Virus record (IMG/VR): IMGVR_UViG_3300047159_000056
Location: 64,001-128,000 of that record
DNA: 64,000 nucleotides
Direction: 5' to 3' (one strand)
Source of the DNA: a virus
Lineage: Duplodnaviria > Caudoviricetes
Position numbers and translations under genes: made by a program. The notes below the pieces were generated by a model. It did not search any database. It was not told the DNA's origin and saw nothing but the letters and a program-made list of their open reading frames with translations. Of this stretch, positions 12,450 through 22,335 are shown piece by piece. Numbering within the stretch: position 1 is the stretch's first letter; each line of letters begins with the position of its first letter.

Positions 12450-13697
12450 TTAAAATATTGAAGAAGCTCCATTATCTTTTAGGGAACTTCTATTTCTTTT
12501 TTGTTTATTGTATCTCTTATATAAAGTCACCTTATCTAAATTTTTTGACCAGTAGAAAACACCATTCCATTTTCTATAATCAATCATCTTTTTTATTTTT
12601 AGTCTAAGGTTATATGATCTTTTATGTTTTAAGAACCCCAAGTAAGAATTAAGAGATCTAGTATAATATTCTGCAGTATCTATATTAATTGGAGCCATAT
12701 TAAAGTCGTGAATCATTGAATATAGGCCACCAAGAGACTGTTTACTATAATATATTCTATCAGATTTTATAACAGACCCAATAAATTTTACTCCTTTTCT
12801 ATAATTTTGTAAGTATAGCTTTTTATCATGTAATCTAAGGCCAAGATTATCTAAGAGCCATTTCTTTATAAAACTGATTCTATCTAAGATTTCTTCTTTT
12901 GTTCTACCTAAGACAAAGAAATCATCAACATATCTCCCATAATTTCCTTGAAACATAGAAGACATAAGATCATCAAAATCACTAAGATAAAAATTAGCAA
13001 AACATTGACTGGTTAAGTTTCCAATAGGTAGTCCACAATTTTGATCGCAAGTAAATAGAGATTTATCTTTATCTAATTTCTTCCACAAACTTTTTTTAGA
13101 CTTTATTCTACAATTTAAGTTAGGTCGATTAAATATTACTAGCTCTACTAACCACCTAAGTAAGTCTATATCTTTCCCTTTATACTTATCTAGGATGAAT
13201 TTATCTAGGTTATTCCAGAGAATCTTTCTATTTATCCCCATGAAAAATCCTTTAATATCAAACTTTCCTATCCAACAATCCTCTCTTGTAAAATGATCAG
13301 TAAAGGAATCTATCTTACTATATAATCTATTTACTCCATATAAGACACCTTTTTCTTTTCTACTACTATAACAATCTTCTATAAATTTATTCTCAAATAA
13401 TGGCTCAAGTCTCTGCATTATGATATGGTGAACTATTCTATCTCTGAAATCTGCTGCAAAAACTTCTCTAATTTTGGGATGTGTTACTATAAATGCTATG
13501 GACTTTCCTATTGTATAAGTCTTAGTGTTTACATCCTCCCAAAGATTAATTAAATTATTCTCATAGTTTCTTTCAAATAAGAGAGCATTTACTGTATTTC
13601 TCTTATGCTTTCTACATGACATATAAGCTTCATAAAAATCCCCGAGTGAAATTTTATCTTCACCCAGGGACATCTTCTTTTTCTTTTCTCTATTCAT
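12450..13697 (-). CDS. DGR reverse transcriptase
   Basis: PKIREVFAADFRDRIVHH, KFDIKGFF, GLPIGNLTSQCFANFYL, YGRYVDDF and GVKFIG motifs; start may be the ATG at 13673. Confidence 0.95.
   Translation of the reverse strand: MNREKKKKMSLGEDKISLGDFYEAYMSCRKHKRNTVNALLFERNYENNLINLWEDVNTKTYTIGKSIAFIVTHPKIREVFAADFRDRIVHHIIMQRLEPLFENKFIEDCYSSRKEKGVLYGVNRLYSKIDSFTDHFTREDCWIGKFDIKGFFMGINRKILWNNLDKFILDKYKGKDIDLLRWLVELVIFNRPNLNCRIKSKKSLWKKLDKDKSLFTCDQNCGLPIGNLTSQCFANFYLSDFDDLMSSMFQGNYGRYVDDFFVLGRTKEEILDRISFIKKWLLDNLGLRLHDKKLYLQNYRKGVKFIGSVIKSDRIYYSKQSLGGLYSMIHDFNMAPINIDTAEYYTRSLNSYLGFLKHKRSYNLRLKIKKMIDYRKWNGVFYWSKNLDKVTLYKRYNKQKRNRSSLKDNGASSIF
13639..13670 (-). other. 12-bp RNA hairpin 3' of TR, inside the RT 5' end
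   Basis: UCCCUGGGUGAA/UUCACUCGGGGA pairs fully (2 G-U) only on the transcribed strand; 8-nt loop. Confidence 0.55.
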
Positions 13698-13730
13698 AAT
13701 TAAAATATAACTGATTCTTTCCTATTAATA

Positions 13731-13844
13731 AGTGCAGTAAAAGCCCTAACCTTAAAACCGTTATTCTTATTGTTGTTGTTGACGTTACTGTTAGAACCTA
13801 TGTTGACGTTCCTAGCGTTGTTGCTATTATACTCTGAACTAGAC
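13731..13844 (-). repeat. DGR template repeat (TR), 114 bp
   Basis: AAC/AAT-rich; reads SSSEYNSNNARNVNIGSNSNVNNNNKNNGFKVRAFTAL; differs from VR only at adenine positions of the minus strand. Confidence 0.95.
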
Positions 13845-14059
13845 GCCACTAGAGATGTTTTGTTCTGGGGATTAAGATATAACTAGACCTATTTATTATC
13901 CAAGATCATATTCTAGATGCTACACTATACCAACATCTCAGTGAAATAATGTGACAAAAATATATCTCAAAATCTAGTACCCCAGCCTCTTATTAATATC
14001 TAAATAATTAAATATTTACTGCTTTCTCAATGAATCCGTAAACTCATTGACTCCATCAG

Positions 14060-14428
14060 CTAATCAGTATTGCCTTTCTTGATTAAACTATTTTTCCATG
14101 CAGTAGATTGTTTTCCAATAGATTCAGTTAACATAGATATTTCCCCACCTTTATTTAGACTAATCTCATGTTTCTCTATACAAATTCTAATCAAGGTTTT
14201 TACCATATTAAATTCTCTAATGAAATTTTCTGCAAAAGATATTCTATCCTCTAAGCTAGAATATTCCATATTAATTCTCATAATTAGGTCCAGTAATTCT
14301 ATAGATCTGTTTACTAAGGATTCACCTATTGTATATCTAAAAAATCTACTAAATTTCTCTGACGAATCTAAGAGAACATCTACTAGTTCCAAGGTTTTCT
14401 TATATATTGGAAGTTCTTCTGATATCAT
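14060..14428 (-). CDS. avd: DGR accessory variability determinant (Avd-like four-helix bundle)
   Basis: 122 aa, ELPIYKKTLEL...FSRFFRYTIGESL...IGKQSTAWK; lies between VR and TR. Confidence 0.85.
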   Translation of the reverse strand: MISEELPIYKKTLELVDVLLDSSEKFSRFFRYTIGESLVNRSIELLDLIMRINMEYSSLEDRISFAENFIREFNMVKTLIRICIEKHEISLNKGGEISMLTESIGKQSTAWKNSLIKKGNTD

Positions 14429-14452
14429 TTATAGTTATTTTATTTTATTATA

Positions 14453-14498
14453 AGTTAGCACCCTGGCCCTCCTTCGTCAGGCAATCAGGGCACTAACT
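14453..14498 (-). promoter_or_regulatory. Hairpin immediately 3' of the target gene (DGR homing-associated hairpin position)
   Basis: AGTTAGTGCCCTG/CAGGGTGCTAACT 13-bp stem (tandem G-T/G-U pairs) starting 7 nt after the restored stop codon; GC-rich. Confidence 0.65.
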
Positions 14499-14505
14499 GG
14501 ATTAA

Positions 14506-15596
14506 TTAAAGCGCTAAAGGGTTGAGAGCAGTAAAAGCCCTAACCTTAAAACCGAGATTCTTATCGCCGTGCTGCCGACGTAACTGGTCAGAACCTACGT
14601 GGACGACCCTAGCGCTCGCCGCTACTCAGACTCTGAACTAGACCAGAAATAATTATTCCATGGTAAGACTGCTGCGCTTGTATTTACCTTCTTCCCAGTA
14701 ACTGCAGAAAGACCATTATTTATAGCATTGTATCTAGCTAAGAGAAAAGCTAATTCTCCACATGCAGGAAGATACCAATCACCCTGAGCAGTTCCAGGAG
14801 TATTAAATCTCCAACAACACTCAGATGCAGGATAATTTCCAGCAACGTTAGTATAAGATAATGTACTAGATGTCTTCCAATCAGTTACAGTTACTTCATT
14901 TAATATTAGTTGTGTATTTTCTTTTCCACTAAAATCGGATAGAGCGTTCACAACAGACGTATCATAGTAGAGAGGGTTCTTATATCCATCTTTAGTAAAT
15001 GGACTAGGACCAAATCTATCTTCTGCACCACTAGTAACAGTAGTATCACCAGAATAATTTTTATTAGCATACTTATCACCACTAATGGGATCTGTATAGC
15101 CAGTAAAGTCAACCCTATCTGAAGGAATTCTAACCCAGTCCGTAGTACCAGTAGATTCTCCAGTTAAGGGGTTTACTTTTTTCACAGTAGTATAATTAGT
15201 AAGACCACTTATATCTTTGCTAGTATATCCCCACTGAATATTAGTATCACTCCCAGTAGAAGATGATCCAGTATCAGGTGTAGTCATAGACATATTTGGT
15301 AGACTAACTATTCTGCATACCCCATCTAAGGTAAATCTAGATGGTATGGCTATTACTCCAATTGGCACTAGGTTACTAAGTCTATACAATCCACCAGAAT
15401 AAGCTCCAGGTGAAGAGTATCTAAATAGTCCTTCAGATTTTACATAGTAGACAACATCACCAAATGTAGCAGAACAATTAGGAACTATAATAGACTTTCC
15501 TTCTACCATAGATATTCCAAAATTTGTCTTAGATGCTGCATTAGTGATAGTAGCTTTATAATCTGCTATGCTATCATAATTTTTAATGTACTTCAT
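14506..15596 (-). CDS. DGR target protein, C-type-lectin-fold receptor-binding protein; frameshifted within VR in this consensus
   Basis: WYLPACGEL...YFWSSSE motif; TR frame restores ...GFKVRAFTALNPLAL* with stop at 14506-14508; the track ORF stops early at 14622. Confidence 0.88.
14525..14643 (-). repeat. DGR variable repeat (VR), 119 bp
   Basis: Aligns end-to-end with TR; about 20 substitutions, all at TR adenines, plus 5 inserted nt at 4 AA sites. Confidence 0.95.
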
Positions 15597-15784: not shown

Positions 15785-16276
15785 TCATTTTAAGAGACTT
15801 ATAAATAGTGATGTAAAGCAAGATACCTCACACCAAAATACTATATTCTTACTATCTATAGTCTCGATTAATTTTTTATTTCCTCTATTAAAGATACACC
15901 ATAAAACTATTTCCCCCGGTATGATCCAAGATAGAAGTGATATCGGTGTACCATATAAGATTACCCATAGTTGTGAAAATATTCCGCTAGTAGTTGCTCC
16001 TACTATATGAATTTTTCTCTCATATTCTCTCACCCTAGGAGCAGCACCTACTAAGAATATTCCAGAGATTGCTAGGAATGGTACTATTTGTGTTGTAGCA
16101 GCCATATCCATACACTTAGGCAAAACTAGAATACCACATACCCACATAGTAAGAGTGAATATAGGCTTCCAACCAATATAATAGTAAGAATCACTAAGAG
16201 AAGTAGGAATGCCATATTTAGTACAAACTAATGTAGTATAAGTCAGCAATATTAGTAGTGAGATTATTATTGTCAT
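15785..16276 (-). CDS. Multi-pass membrane protein
   Basis: About 5 hydrophobic segments; GIPTSLSDSYY motif. Confidence 0.75.
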   Translation of the reverse strand: MTIIISLLILLTYTTLVCTKYGIPTSLSDSYYYIGWKPIFTLTMWVCGILVLPKCMDMAATTQIVPFLAISGIFLVGAAPRVREYERKIHIVGATTSGIFSQLWVILYGTPISLLSWIIPGEIVLWCIFNRGNKKLIETIDSKNIVFWCEVSCFTSLFISLLK

Positions 16277-16836
16277 AAGTTTATTACTAGTTTATCTGGA
16301 TAACCTGTAGTATAGTCGAACTTAATTGCATCACTAATAGATTGTAATGCCTCTATATTTTTTTTATGCTCAGCTGTCTTATTAAAACAATTAAGAGCAT
16401 ATATTTCTAGACCAGCTAGGAGATTAATGACAAGATCACACTTAATGGTAAGAGGTGTACTTCCTAACCAGAGCACAGTATTTTCATAACCGGCTGACTT
16501 AAAGATATTAGTGGAGTTCATTAAGCCAACTCTTGTATTCTTATCTAGCCAAAAACTATTACCATTAATTATGAAAGAGTTAACATCTGTACTTGAATCA
16601 TAACTAGTTAATTCATTCACTAGAACTTCTTTAAATAGACTTAGAGCAGTAACATCTTCATCTTTCTGCTTAACTAGTTCTATATATTTGGAAGTATATG
16701 TAGTTTCTCCTTTATCATCTGTTGTAGCCTGAGAATCAAAATAAACCCTCCACGTGTTATATTGTCCTTCAGTCTTTAGAAGAAGTAGCTCAGTTGGTTC
16801 AGAATTAGAATAACTAAGCTTATAATTTTTTATCAT
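16273..16836 (-). CDS. DUF4376-like protein (putative tail-fibre assembly factor)
   Basis: YDSSTDVNSF...WLDKNTRVGL...LEIYALNCFNKTAEHK...YTTGYPDKL. Confidence 0.8.
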   Translation of the reverse strand: MIKNYKLSYSNSEPTELLLLKTEGQYNTWRVYFDSQATTDDKGETTYTSKYIELVKQKDEDVTALSLFKEVLVNELTSYDSSTDVNSFIINGNSFWLDKNTRVGLMNSTNIFKSAGYENTVLWLGSTPLTIKCDLVINLLAGLEIYALNCFNKTAEHKKNIEALQSISDAIKFDYTTGYPDKLVINL

Positions 16837-16899: not shown

Positions 16900-17250
16900 T
16901 TATTTAGTAAAAATTGTAGTTCCACCTAACATGATCTTAGTTAGATTTTTTGTAGTAGGATCAATAACAAAATATAGTTTATTATCAGACGGACTAGTAG
17001 GCTCCGCTTCTACTATTTCTATTCCTGAACAACTAAGAGATTGAACTAAGCCTGATGTATCTAAGCTAATTTTCTTATTTGTTGTTCCACTAGGAGTTTC
17101 TATCTTAATACCATCTCCCTGTATAAGATCACTAGAATCAAATGCATTGGTATATAGATACTCCAGGGCACTCTCTATTTTCCCTAAGTTTGTAGAATTA
17201 ACTGGGGTTTTACTATCTGTCCAAATAGTTTTAGTATATGATTTCTTCAT
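16900..17250 (-). CDS. Small virion/tail-fibre-related protein
   Basis: N-terminal YTKTIW..KTPVNSTNLGKIESAL motif typical of phage fibre N-termini. Confidence 0.65.
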   Translation of the reverse strand: MKKSYTKTIWTDSKTPVNSTNLGKIESALEYLYTNAFDSSDLIQGDGIKIETPSGTTNKKISLDTSGLVQSLSCSGIEIVEAEPTSPSDNKLYFVIDPTTKNLTKIMLGGTTIFTK

Positions 17251-17262
17251 TCTTATTTCATT

Positions 17263-17634
17263 TTAAGAAGCTGTAGTCGTAGAATCAACCTCATAACCAC
17301 ATATAGCTTGACCACATAAGAGACAATCACTACATATGGAAGGAGGATACATAAATAAGTCTAAGCCAACTAATTCTAAGTCTTTCCAAACAAAAGGAGT
17401 ATCTATCCCCTCTAAGTATATTGAACTAAAACATTGACCAAACGAATTTATTCTTATCTTTATATCTTTTATTAAGTAAGTCTGCGTTTCATCATAACCA
17501 AACATAGACTTGCTAACAGATAAAGACGATACCTTAACTGACGCTCCTAGTAATTGATAATAATCCCAATTTCCTGCAGGAGAGGTTACAGCTATTCTTC
17601 TATTCTCCATCTTAGTTTTCTTCAAGTAAGTCAA
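17263..17634 (-). CDS. Hypothetical protein with C-terminal Cys cluster
   Basis: ICSDCLLCGQAICG; true start probably MENRR at about 17610. Confidence 0.7.
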   Translation of the reverse strand: MTYLKKTKMENRRIAVTSPAGNWDYYQLLGASVKVSSLSVSKSMFGYDETQTYLIKDIKIRINSFGQCFSSIYLEGIDTPFVWKDLELVGLDLFMYPPSICSDCLLCGQAICGYEVDSTTTAS

Positions 17635-18028
17635 AAGCTTTCATGATTTCTGTTGTATCATGCCAGCCAGAATTCTCAACATCACTAATAGCACGTACTA
17701 TCTTTACTGCTACATCTTTCTTACCTAAGTCTATTACTTCATCAGCACCATAACCAGAACTTTTACTAACATATCCTATATAAGCAGTAGTATTATTCTC
17801 ATTATCTGGAGCCCACCTGTTAATAATCTTCCTAATCGTATTACAACCATACTTTTTCTCGTAATTCTGTAATATCTTAATTAGAGCTCTATAACCATAA
17901 ATCATAGACTTAAATTGCTTAAATGACTTATCAGTACTGGAAATCTCTCCCTGGAAATCATCTGGACTATGCCTGATGTTACCTGGGTTATTATTCCTCA
18001 TACCTCTAGTAATTTTATCTTCACTCAT
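17612..18028 (-). CDS. Lysozyme-like ('structural protein P5'-type) putative muramidase
   Basis: RGMRNNNPGNIR...IINRWAPDNENNTTAY...VENS motif set. Confidence 0.8.
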   Translation of the reverse strand: MSEDKITRGMRNNNPGNIRHSPDDFQGEISSTDKSFKQFKSMIYGYRALIKILQNYEKKYGCNTIRKIINRWAPDNENNTTAYIGYVSKSSGYGADEVIDLGKKDVAVKIVRAISDVENSGWHDTTEIMKAFDLLEEN

Positions 18029-18030
18029 AT

Positions 18031-18297
18031 CTATTTATTATTATTCTTCTCTTGATAAACTTTGTCAGCCTTTAAATCCTGTAACTGAATTATTCTACCT
18101 CGAATGTCAATAAGGCTGCTCTTTACCTCTTTAATATCATCATTCCACTTAATAATCATATCATGGTCATTCTTTACCTGAACTTCCAAAACATCTATCC
18201 TTTTATTCAAGTCCGTCCAAGCACCCGCAAATACAATACTTAAAGAAACAAGAGCAGTAATTAAAACATTTCTTAAGCCATTATCCTTATCTCTCAT
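18031..18297 (-). CDS. Holin-like single-TM plus coiled-coil protein
   Basis: MRDKDNGLRNVLITALVSLSIVFAGAW + coiled coil; directly upstream of the lysozyme-like gene; start reassigned from 18432. Confidence 0.6.
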   Translation of the reverse strand: MRDKDNGLRNVLITALVSLSIVFAGAWTDLNKRIDVLEVQVKNDHDMIIKWNDDIKEVKSSLIDIRGRIIQLQDLKADKVYQEKNNNK

Positions 18298-18301
18298 ATC
18301 A

Positions 18302-18518
18302 TTAGTAAACATTGAACAAACCCTCCCAAGATAGTTGCAATTCACTTCCGATATACCCATCATCATAAGCCAAATCGTGAGCATTACACTCGATTTTAAA
18401 ACAGAGCAAAAAACTCGTGATAAGGAAACCATTCTTCTATAAAGGCTTGAAGTATTTTAGAGCATTACCACTGAAAAACCGCACCTGAACCACATCCGTT
18501 TACGCTATTGTCTGCCAT
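18302..18518 (-). pseudogene. Disrupted phospholipase A2-like gene
   Basis: Fragments in different frames: MADNSVNGCGSG / LKYFKP / PYHEFF / KIECNAHDLAYDDG; ATG coupled (TGATG) to the upstream stop. Confidence 0.6.
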
Positions 18519-19120
18519 CAGAAAGCGAGTTTATCGGGATAACCTTTAGTAATATCATAACTCTCCACTTCTGCAATAGTTGTGAGCATTTCCACCTCTG
18601 CCTTGTGTTGCATAGTAACGAGATAGCAAGCATCAGCGTATCTCTGTATCTTCGCAAGCATGATTTTTGCAGTATCAAGCGACAAGTTGATAATTCCTGC
18701 GGTTGTCGGAATGCTGATTGTCGTTTCACCCAACAGGCTTGCGCTCTCAATGCTGTTTTTAAACCCTGCTCTAACCTCTGCACTGAACCACAACGGAATA
18801 TTGTTGTACGTAAAACTGTTTACCGCATCGCTGTTGTCGTAATCTGTTATTTCCTTCAACTTCTTTTCGATTGCTTCCGTTAACGAATTATCTACAACAT
18901 CAGTGCTTGTTAGACTTGCGTTATACGTTTCAAGCTGCTTGCGATAATACGTTTCAAGCTGCTTGCGATAATCAGTTGCTTGCGTGTCCGTTATCTCCTT
19001 CCACGTGCTTACATCTACCGTGTCGGGCAAATATAAACAATCTGAAATTACTCTATCTTGTATCGCTACATCCGCACTTTGTGTAAGATAGTAGCCTTCT
19101 TTTGCTTGTAATGTTTTCAT
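18518..19120 (-). CDS. DUF4376-like protein (second copy)
   Basis: KLKEITDYDNSDAVNSF...YADACYLVTMQHK...YDITKGYPDKL. Confidence 0.8.
   Translation of the reverse strand: MKTLQAKEGYYLTQSADVAIQDRVISDCLYLPDTVDVSTWKEITDTQATDYRKQLETYYRKQLETYNASLTSTDVVDNSLTEAIEKKLKEITDYDNSDAVNSFTYNNIPLWFSAEVRAGFKNSIESASLLGETTISIPTTAGIINLSLDTAKIMLAKIQRYADACYLVTMQHKAEVEMLTTIAEVESYDITKGYPDKLAF
18923..18970. repeat. Perfect 24-bp tandem duplication (YRKQLETY x2)
   Basis: atacgtttcaagctgcttgcgata occurs twice in tandem. Confidence 0.9.
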
Positions 19121-22100
19121 TAAGCTATTGTCCAGTTTTTATTTGTTGCAATTAATTTATCTGCATCAGTCAATAATACCTTAGTCGTAGAAGAAAGAGT
19201 AAGCGTTTGCGCCGTTCCTCCTGTCAAGTCTGCAAGTCCGTTTATTATGACTAATGCGCTTTCTCTTGAAAGTGGAGAAGATGAAAAACTTAAACTAATT
19301 TTAATGCCGCTTATGACTCCTGTTATAGTTGTTAATGCAACGCAATTGTAAAACATATATGACATAGAAGTAACAGCAGACGTGTCAAAGTTTCCGAGGT
19401 CGAGAGTTGTTAATGCAACGCAATTGGAAAACATATATGACATAGTTAGTAACAGCAGACGTGTCAAAGTTTCCGAGGTCGAGAGTTGTTAATGCACGCA
19501 ATTGTGCACATAGAAGTAACAGCAGACGTGTCAAAGTTTCCGAGGTCGAGAGTTGTTAATGCAACGCAATTGTAAAACATATGACATAGAAGTAACAGCA
19601 GACGTGTCAAAGTTTCCGAGGTCGAGAGTTGTTAATGCAACGCAATTGTTAAACATACCTGACATAGAAGTAACAGCAGACGTGTCAAAGTTTCCGAGGT
19701 CGAGAGTTGTTAATGCAGCGCAATTGTAAAACATACCTGACATAGAAGTAACAGCAGACGTGTCAAAGTTTCCGAGGTCGAGAGTTGTTAATGCAGCGCA
19801 ATTGTAAAACATACCTGACATAGAAGTAACAGCAGACGTGTCAAAGTTTCCGAGGTCGAGAGTTGTTAATGCAACGCAATTGTAAAACATATCTGACATA
19901 GAAGTAACAGCAGACGTGTCAAAGTTTCCGAGGTCGAGAGTTGTTAATGCAACGCAATTGCGAAAACATATCTGACATAGAAGTAACAGCAGACGTGTCA
20001 AAGTTTCCGAGGTCGAGAGTTGTTAATGCAACGCAATACTGGAAAACATATCTGACATAGAAGTAACAGCAGACGTGTCCCAGCCGCTAAGGTCAAGTTC
20101 AGTTATTGCAGTTCCATTAAAACAACCATACATGTTCGTAACTGAAGTTGTATCCCACTTTTCTGCATTGACATAAGTTAGATTAGTGTCGTTTTGGAAC
20201 AATCCCCAAATCGATGTTACTCCAGTCAAGGAAGGCATCGAATATATTTCTTCAATTTCCGTATCTCCCGCTAATGCAGATTTCCAGATAGCTCCAGAAG
20301 GTATATTCGATTTCTTAACTATCGTTCCATCCGTTTTTTTATAGATTAAATTCGTAAATCCGTCAAAACACTTGTATATGTCTGAAACATTTACGCTTGC
20401 ATTTGCTATTGCATCCGTTACCGCCTTTTGGCTCATCACATCCGTTGTACTCGTACCTGTAACCTGCACGACTGCTGCCGATGAAGTCGCTTGCTTAGAA
20501 GCAACACCGAGGTCAGTCCACGTTGTTCCTCCATCGGTTGATAACATCCAATTAAAGGTCGTGGTATCTATCTTTAATTGTGGAACAGTTGATGTTGTTC
20601 CTACACTAATTGAATTAATAGAATTAGTTTGTAAAGCAGTTATATTATCAGCATTTGTTTTTTCAGCTGCTTTAGCCCTAGTTACCTCACTATCTATATT
20701 TGTTTGTAGAGTAGTTTCTGCTGCTTTTGCTCTAGTAGTTTCTGTACTAATAGCTGTTGCATTTGCTACAATTAGTTTATTTAGGCTATATGCTTCATTA
20801 TCTGTAGTGATCCAACTTCCTGCTGCATGTGCTACGGTAAATCTTCTTAATGATTCGCTATAAATAACTATAGTACCAGCAGTATAAGCGGTAGATGCAG
20901 AGAATGTAGGATATTCAGTTACTCCAGTATTAGTATTTAATCTAGTAATATTAGTAGTGTTTGTGCTTATATTAGTAGTATTAGTTGCTATATTGGATTT
21001 AATAGTAGTATCGTTATAATTAGTTACGCTGGCTAATCTTGTTATTTCTGTATCGCTTATTAAAGATTTTCCAGTTACTTTATCTACTTTAGTTGCTTCT
21101 ATGGTTGTTGCTCTAGTTATTTCATCAGATATACTTTTTTTAACTGCTGTATCGTCATAGTTTGTTACGGTAGAGAGTCTAGCTATTTCTGAAGCTGATA
21201 TTTTTCTATCTACTCTATCTAGTCCTTGATTTATTTCATTCAAGGATTTAGATACAACATCTTCATTTTCTTTTACAGTTTTGCTAAGATCTCCTACTGT
21301 TACTGCTACAACTTTTTCATCGCTTTCTAGATCTGTATTATTTGCTTTTAGGTCTAGGGCTGTTTGTTGTGGTCCTGATACTGGTTTATTTAGGTCACTA
21401 GTATTATCAACCTGAGCTAGTCCTATATCTCCTTTTGTTAGAGTTATATTACTAGATAGTGGTATGGAATTAATAGTAGTTGTCTTATCTACTTTTTTAT
21501 CAAGTGCTGTCTGTTGTGGCCCAGATACTGGTAATGTAGTTGCTGTATAAGAAGCATAGCTACCAAGTCCAACCTGTGCTGCTGTTACACTATGAGGATT
21601 ATCTGTCCTGCTAGTATGTGCGCTAAGGTTATTAGTAATAGTAGTTGCGGTAGGAAGGCCAGCTAATTTTGTTATATCGGAATCAGGTACTAAGGAATAG
21701 CCAGTTTTTTTATCTACCTTTGTATTTAGGGCAGTTTGTGTAGCTGTTGATATTGGTTTACTAATATCGCTAGTATTATCTACATTTCCCAGTCCTATAT
21801 CACTTTTGGTTAAGCTAATATCAGAGCCGAGATCATAGCCATTAATTTTAGTATTATTTGTGGCCATTGTAGCTCTAATATTATTTAGGGCTCCTGCAGA
21901 TGTTTGTTCTAGTTCTTTTAGGCCATCCTTTATTTCTCCTGTTATTTGGGCGATTGATTTTTCGTCTTCCCCCAGATTATTTAGGATATCTGTATCAGCT
22001 TTTTCTAGTTCTGTTTTTACTTTTCCCAGGTTTTCTGTTGTACCTGATTCTAGTTCTTTAAATTTATTTGCTACTGCTTTATTTTGTATAGAATTTTCAG

Positions 22101-22335
22101 AGGATTCGTCTAGCTCGGTGTCTACTAATGTCGCCCATAGACCTGTAGTAGTATTAGGGGTATTGGAAGAGGAGAATATGTATCTAGTTTTTGTCTCAGA
22201 GCAGTAGGATATGTGCCCTTCATCGAGACTAGTGCTAGGATAATTTTTCATTTCTTCCAGTGTAGCAAAGGAATCTCTATTAAAGTTCGATTGTTTTCCC
22301 TGATAGTCAAAGTTATCACCTATTTTTAAAGCCAT
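19120..22335 (-). CDS. Tail fibre/adhesin with coiled shaft and C-terminal DUF285/BspA-like LRR array; about 1074 aa once the repeat indels are repaired
   Basis: Joins track ORFs 20023-22335, 19531-20001 and 19120-19467; GLxxVDNTSDxxKPxS shaft repeats; 26-aa LDLGNFDTSAVTSMSxMFxNCxALTT repeats; cap ...IATNKNWTIA; net indel -9 keeps start and end in one frame. Confidence 0.82.
19327..20079 (-). repeat. Tandem array of 78-bp units (9 units + 1 partial)
   Basis: Units start at 19327, 19405, 19484, 19551, 19627, 19705, 19783, 19861, 19939 and 20018; about 48 nt of each unit invariant. Confidence 0.97.

Follow-up and report, generated by a model that had tools for sequence, protein, structure and literature searches.

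The DNA analyzed here, a 64,000-nt window of a 207-kb linear virus contig (32% GC, estimated to be 56% complete), carries a tail-fiber gene that ends in a series of nearly identical LRR units. These units differ from each other at a few NNY codons and are located 5 kb from a DGR. This raises the question whether the array is a second DGR target, in which a template retrohomes into each repeat, or whether its diversity results from recombinational shuffling between the repeats. Both explanations were put forward in an earlier note on this DNA. The array is likely to consist of shuffled repeats on a mobile fiber-tip cassette, shaped by concerted evolution and diversifying selection, rather than being a second DGR target. 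The hypervariable locus is real and probably functional.

Organization of the array (read from position 20079 to 19327) agrees with the ten near-identical minus-strand units described previously. The units have a basic length of 78 nt. In order, the first nine measure 80, 79, 78, 78, 78, 78, 76, 67 and 79 nt, and the tenth continues into the C-terminal cap. TRF identified a period of 78 with 9.8 copies, 93% matches and a score of 1288. Each unit corresponds to a 26-residue DUF285/PARCEL repeat (BspA-type LRR), recognized by Pfam with 131 bits against a cut-off of 25 (PF03382). The variable codons of the unit are 7, 10, 13, 14 and 16. Among the in-frame units of the window, all changes are found at codon positions 1 and 2, the pyrimidine in the third position is retained, and every unit has the same AAC codon close to its end, as the earlier note had it. 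Its statement that synonymous differences are absent stands for this contig, but not for related contigs, in which eight codons (1, 2, 4, 5, 6, 12, 18 and 19) have synonymous variants, with C, T and G among them. Five units carry indels (+2, +1, -2, -11 and +1), which all fall inside the variable stretch, again as reported. The array forms the C-terminal part of the tail-fiber gene (22335 to 19120), which is broken into three ORFs by these indels. Since they sum to -9 nt, the gene start and the C-terminal cap are in one frame.

The positions of the array and its surroundings are given in Table 1. Pfam and PHROG searches with the fiber gene returned only DUF285/LRR and tail-fiber matches; HET, NACHT and WD40 domains are absent. 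The array is fused to a tail-fiber-like shaft and located among virion and lysis genes; judging from this fusion and context, the membrane or surface targeting of PARCEL proteins does not seem to apply here. The C-terminal cap is a member of a family that is widespread, with 3,206 clusters at 50% identity. The 200-aa gene that travels with the tip may encode a fiber chaperone or an accessory protein. Jumbo relatives are 99-100% identical on both sides of the cassette slot, which is occupied by the same cassette (L014, L032 and L033), by other LRR tips with a related cap (L017 and L040) or by a second, ordinary DGR (L038). Based on the DUF families nearby, the host is presumably a member of the Bacteroidota.

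Table 1. Coordinates of the fiber-tip locus and of the nearby DGR within the window.
Feature	Position	Strand	Remarks
Tail-fiber gene (shaft, N-cap, LRR array, C-cap)	19120..22335	-	Shaft: PHROG tail fiber and minor tail matches
N-terminal solenoid flank, diverged LRR-like turns	20080..20430	-	20100-20420 99.7-100% identical in jumbo relatives and most small phages
LRR array, ten 78-nt DUF285/PARCEL units (26 aa each), five with indels	19327..20079	-	TRF, Pfam, unit alignment
C-terminal cap	19120..19326	-	98.5-100% identical among cassette carriers
200-aa gene travelling with the tip; paralogue of 16273-16836	18518..19120	-	16273-16836: weak PHROG tail-fiber match
Swappable fiber-tip cassette	18357..20583	-	~40% GC vs 32% for the genome; slot contents vary among jumbo relatives
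DGR reverse transcriptase, only RT in the 207-kb record	12450..13697	-	
TR of the canonical DGR, not similar to the LRR unit	13731..13842	-	
bAvd accessory gene of the canonical DGR	14060..14428	-	
True VR of the canonical DGR, internal control	14525..14641	-	Target gene starts at 15596

The structure of the tip was predicted with AlphaFold for the intact array of a small phage (L026). The model is a regular solenoid with N- and C-terminal caps (pLDDT 84, pTM 0.81). Its structural matches in the PDB are all LRR proteins at a low TM-score (0.2-0.4), and the best viral structural matches are BspA-family proteins; a sequence search of the PDB gave no match. On each turn of the model, the variable positions lie in register; they start at the single bridge residue (position 7) and extend over the loop that comes next, and are not part of the classical LxxLxL strand. 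The variable residues would probably form a receptor-binding stripe along the solenoid.

The same unit was recovered in 17 further contigs through a look-up of the neighboring proteins. Three of these are jumbo relatives and 14 are others, most of them with a small-phage gene set (contigs up to 41 kb). In the small phage G001, terminase-, portal-, capsid- and tape-measure-like ORFs were recognized by reading of the ORFs. Each of the 18 contigs has a different unit string, with arrays spanning 6.7 to 15.0 units, in support of the earlier proposal that the fiber tip is diversifying in the population. Seven of the arrays come from a single sample (3300056808). In most carriers, the flanks of the array are 99.5-100% identical (99.7-100% for the 321-nt N-flank and 98.5-100% for the cap), and of the 13 distinct jumbo units, 4 have an exactly identical counterpart in small phages. 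As the cassette is common, almost letter for letter, to jumbo and small tailed phages of the same samples, these phages may use the same receptor and draw on one pool of alleles. G001 is dominated by a second unit type, which is recognizable from synonymous changes; elsewhere, partial tracts of this type form mosaics within type 1 arrays, for the most part near the 3' end.

All arrays show 89-94% TRF matches, corresponding to a unit identity above 80% within the gene. None of 150 representatives of the cap family reaches 80% unit identity, a count that short-read bias may affect, so such homogeneity is either unusual or under-assembled. Exact unit patterns had no match in the viral, metagenome and genome collections. 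The degenerate pattern retrieved a single small phage (L046/G001), along with three DUF285 genes that are diverged and unrelated, and BLASTN against named phages gave a single uninformative match (70% over 137 nt). Two unrelated viral contigs (L012:1-330 and L002:11682-11970) carry short DUF285 arrays of 88-92% identity, which suggests that the near-identical DUF285 pattern may recur elsewhere.

Alleles were compared in 113 in-frame units, which come from assembly consensuses rather than reads and are not independent samples. Codons 7, 10, 13, 14 and 16 have 3, 8, 9, 7 and 6 alleles, respectively, which mostly recur across many contigs (up to 16). Between the many NNY codons and the small fixed allele set that had been set against each other beforehand, the outcome is the small set: codon 10 has eight alleles, each present in 2-12 contigs and none of them a singleton, compared with about 13-14 alleles per site expected from independent draws with the base spectrum of this phage's DGR. 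No A allele is present at 10 of the 24 polymorphic positions. None of the scored units shows a change at three silent adenines or at the AAC codon. Of 33 distinct alleles, 6 have C at codon position 2, in comparison with 1 of 52 codons of the true VR (Fisher P=0.013). Within a unit type, the third pyrimidine is kept in nearly all alleles at codons 10, 13, 14 and 16. AAY is the commonest allele at codons 13 and 14, is present at no more than three of the five sites in any unit, and codon 16 is never A-initial.

Neighboring sites are strongly linked. The codon pairs 4-7, 7-10, 10-13 and 13-14 all gave P=0.0005 in a within-contig permutation, distant pairs are mostly unlinked, and linkage drops with distance. 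All four gametes are present in 28 of 36 site pairs. Together with the small recurrent allele pool and the mosaics, this supports the shuffling alternative of the earlier note. Nonsynonymous change is in excess at the five variable codons, with a pN of 0.40, in comparison with a pN of 0.008 and a pS of 0.125 at the other 21, a contrast that is descriptive and not a likelihood test. The pS of 0.007 for "type 1 only" units is circular, as this set was filtered on silent sites. On paper, the amino acids observed at the variable positions allow about 48,000 unit types.

The canonical DGR (12450-15596) serves as an internal comparison. Its RT and bAvd (12450-14428) serve their own TR/VR pair, in which 65 of 152 template adenines are changed over four VRs and no other base is. 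In this contig, the true VR exceeds the TR by 5 nt. Owing to indels in the VR, the target protein measures 324 aa here, against 361 aa in most relatives. The extra 5 nt are probably a consensus artefact of an active DGR. The fused-allele look of the indels, pointed out earlier, is indeed common to the array and this VR.

The earlier observation that no matching TR lies in the window was extended to the whole 207-kb record (56% complete), in which BLASTN, TBLASTN and an adenine-tolerant scan found no TR for the LRR unit. A template was found neither in any fetched locus nor by pattern scans of three collections, and the A-rich template near an RT that had been envisaged was not among the sequences searched. 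The completeness of the two genomes searched is about one half (56% and 50%). No RT is present in 34 kb of G001, nor in other small-phage contigs over a stretch of 10 kb downstream of the cassette (~44 kb in total). The other DGRs that were seen all have ordinary single VRs, not LRRs. The slot of L038 (L038:243-5264) holds a second complete DGR, consisting of a 365-aa target, bAvd, TR and a 545-aa RT, beside the usual DGR target gene, and the fiber of this jumbo relative is shorter. A related 305-kb jumbo phage (L062, G002:C1:73319-76918) has a second DGR with an ordinary VR far from the tail genes, the RT of which is too divergent for a TBLASTN match with the RT of this phage.

The NNY pattern is also found outside DGRs. 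Among 101 units from diverged DUF285 arrays that are unrelated to this one, variation affects these five positions too and 67-94% of their codons are NNY, and the residues N, G, S, Y and D are favored at codons 7, 10, 13 and 14, as they are here. The NNY bias thus seems largely to match the residue preference of the DUF285 family. In simulations of stepwise mutation, all third bases remained unchanged with P=0.05-0.12 when the DUF285 residue preference was included and with P=0.01-0.05 when it was left out; in the latter case, the fixed third pyrimidine is only just compatible with stepwise mutation. Given the residue preference and these P values, the NNY signature is suggestive but weak. The small phages carry two other near-identical repeat arrays, one LRR and one BNR. 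The former, in another tail-region gene (L026:6167-6756), has a different 78-nt unit that varies at three codons (N/S, Y/N and N/G) and contains consensus-type indels. The latter (L026:3227-4103 and L041:4535-5406) consists of BNR/propeller-blade units of 126 nt, seven in number and nearly identical, in which two or three loops are variable. Its alleles include NNR codons and multi-codon blocks, which indicates that the pattern is not tied to AAY codons. The near-identical-repeat architecture therefore recurs in three families of units. A pattern limited to NNY codons next to a genuine DGR should be taken with caution, as it is not proof of DGR targeting.

An active DGR, the template of which would retrohome into each repeat and both homogenize and mutagenize it, would account for the NNY pattern, for the proximity of an active-looking DGR and for the fused-allele indels in both VR and array. 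It is highly improbable and already largely refuted: the array lacks three defining features of a DGR target, namely a template in the sequences searched, differences confined to adenines and many unlinked codons. Its polymorphism includes non-adenine and synonymous changes, its silent adenines are untouched, its allele set is small and recurrent, and its neighboring sites are linked, which counts against this explanation because fresh mutagenesis would erase linkage. In addition, the same cassette diversifies in the small phages, without an RT in the ~44 kb examined. A hybrid explanation, in which the allele pool was made earlier, or is rarely topped up, by a DGR with a template that is no longer linked, and is then shuffled by recombination, is rather unlikely. 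Such a template could be located in the missing part of the jumbo genome, in the host or in another phage. The retained third pyrimidines, the prevalence of AAY at codons 13 and 14, the half-complete state of both genomes and the existence of second DGRs, both in the related jumbo phage and in the same cassette slot of L038, speak in its favor. On the other side are the failure of all template searches, the ordinary VRs of every other DGR seen, the limited number of AAY sites per unit with a codon 16 that never starts with A, and C at codon position 2, which is common in the units and rare from this phage's RT. It is equally doubtful that the locus is a two-stage diversifier, in which adenine-derived alleles are supplied to the repeat unit by a DGR, operating in trans or at an earlier time, and inter-repeat recombination builds receptor-binding solenoids of variable length. 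If true, such solenoids would be common to unrelated phages, somewhat like VLR assembly but in phage.

It is also quite unlikely that the diversity is apparent, resulting from a recent tandem duplication under neutral drift, with few variants that were scrambled by the assemblers. Off-length units are numerous (41 of 154 in the 18 contigs), short contigs start or stop at the array, and near-identical blocks in PARCEL proteins have been attributed to recent duplication (PMC2996958). Against this, the L026 array is wholly in frame without a single indel and that of L029 is nearly so, and their unit strings are unlike each other. Neither the recurrence of 6-9 codon alleles at single sites across samples nor the confinement of nonsynonymous change to five codons is expected from assembly error. 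The gaps of the off-length units are almost entirely in codons 7-14, and the true VR is frameshifted in this contig and in L014 and clean in L032-L037. The indels are most likely consensus artefacts over a mixed population. Programmed frameshifting and true pseudogenization were considered as their cause and rejected, as the indels cluster at polymorphic codons and vary from contig to contig, L026 lacks them, and the true VR of this contig and of L014 is affected as well. With 41 of 154 units off-length in assembly consensuses, some of the mosaics and copy numbers may be assembler-made.

For the preferred explanation, shuffled repeats on a mobile cassette, the following mechanism is proposed. 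The fiber would end in a DUF285/BspA-type LRR solenoid encoded by the near-identical 78-nt units. Recombination between units, by unequal exchange and short gene conversion, would take place both inside a single array and, during co-infection, between phages carrying the same cassette. It would keep the scaffold uniform, alter the number of units and re-assort a standing pool of alleles at the five codons. These alleles would originate from ordinary mutation and from the second, synonymously diverged unit type, and would be retained by diversifying selection. The route and enzymes of this recombination, like the surface exposure of the tip, the binding of a receptor and an effect on host range, are assumed here.

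Receptor-binding proteins of phages are known to vary through DGRs, invertible cassettes, point mutation and the exchange of modules. A further route is suggested by this locus, the shuffling of repeats in an LRR solenoid with five variable residues per turn and a depth of 7-15 units. Such arrays are probably under-reported, as short-read assemblies break at them. A literature search of incomplete coverage found no paper on LRR repeats targeted by a DGR or on shuffled LRR tips of phage fibers.

In comparison with known systems, the array shares with PARCEL/DUF285 proteins the 26-residue tandem unit, the variable repeat number and the existence of phage members, which are known from the literature (PMC7765460) and from matches in a viral structure library. 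Typical PARCEL tracts have a unique sequence in each unit and near-identical blocks are the exception (PMC2996958), whereas the tract described here is near-identical, fused to a tail-fiber shaft and polymorphic within the population. The WD40 repeats of the Podospora HNWD genes (het-d and het-e) have a high internal conservation, with units 80-100% identical (PMC12222747). Comparable conservation is found here, with a unit identity above 80%, 7-15 units with shuffling in the assemblies and few codons under diversifying selection. Both systems show length polymorphism, diversifying selection on few codons and repeats that are shuffled inside a gene as well as among genes and that short-read assembly fails to resolve (PMC12222747). 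However, HNWD proteins are fungal intracellular NLRs with a propeller fold, in contrast to a phage fiber-tip LRR; the exchange partners here are different phages, and changes in specificity, genetically shown for HNWD, are presumed for the fiber. The LRR locus of Flavobacterium psychrophilum (PMC10392669) has similar hypervariable LRR positions, a variable unit number and recombination without a dedicated mobile enzyme. It is a bacterial multi-gene array that encodes secreted proteins with ~22-residue units and includes gene fragments, while the phage fiber has a single in-gene array. With phage DGRs (BPP-1 type; Bacteroides DGRs, bioRxiv 10.1101/2024.11.15.621889), the locus has in common the NNY variation in a tail-associated protein, next to a canonical DGR at 5 kb. 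Unlike these DGRs, it has no template among the sequences searched, shows non-adenine polymorphism and linked recurrent alleles, and is built of ten variable stretches in place of one C-terminal VR (bioRxiv 10.1101/2024.11.15.621889).

Several rearrangements were observed around the tip. At 20583-20584 of the window, the fiber shaft has an in-frame 201-nt deletion relative to the otherwise identical L022, L031, L032 and L033, which represents either the real loss of one module or an assembly collapse. In the 340-kb relative L014 (L014:12890-13537), the solenoid lacks its N-flank, with the shaft joined directly to a unit, either through a real deletion or through misassembly. In the jumbo relative L047 (L047:220-1424), the cap is followed by a tandem pair of 200-aa genes, which seems to have arisen by duplication of the gene following the tip. 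Contig L039 is 99.9% identical to window positions 17001-18340 and then runs on into a long ORF that contains 15 TAG codons in frame (L039:4199-7843), which suggests a TAG-recoded phage or a chimeric contig.
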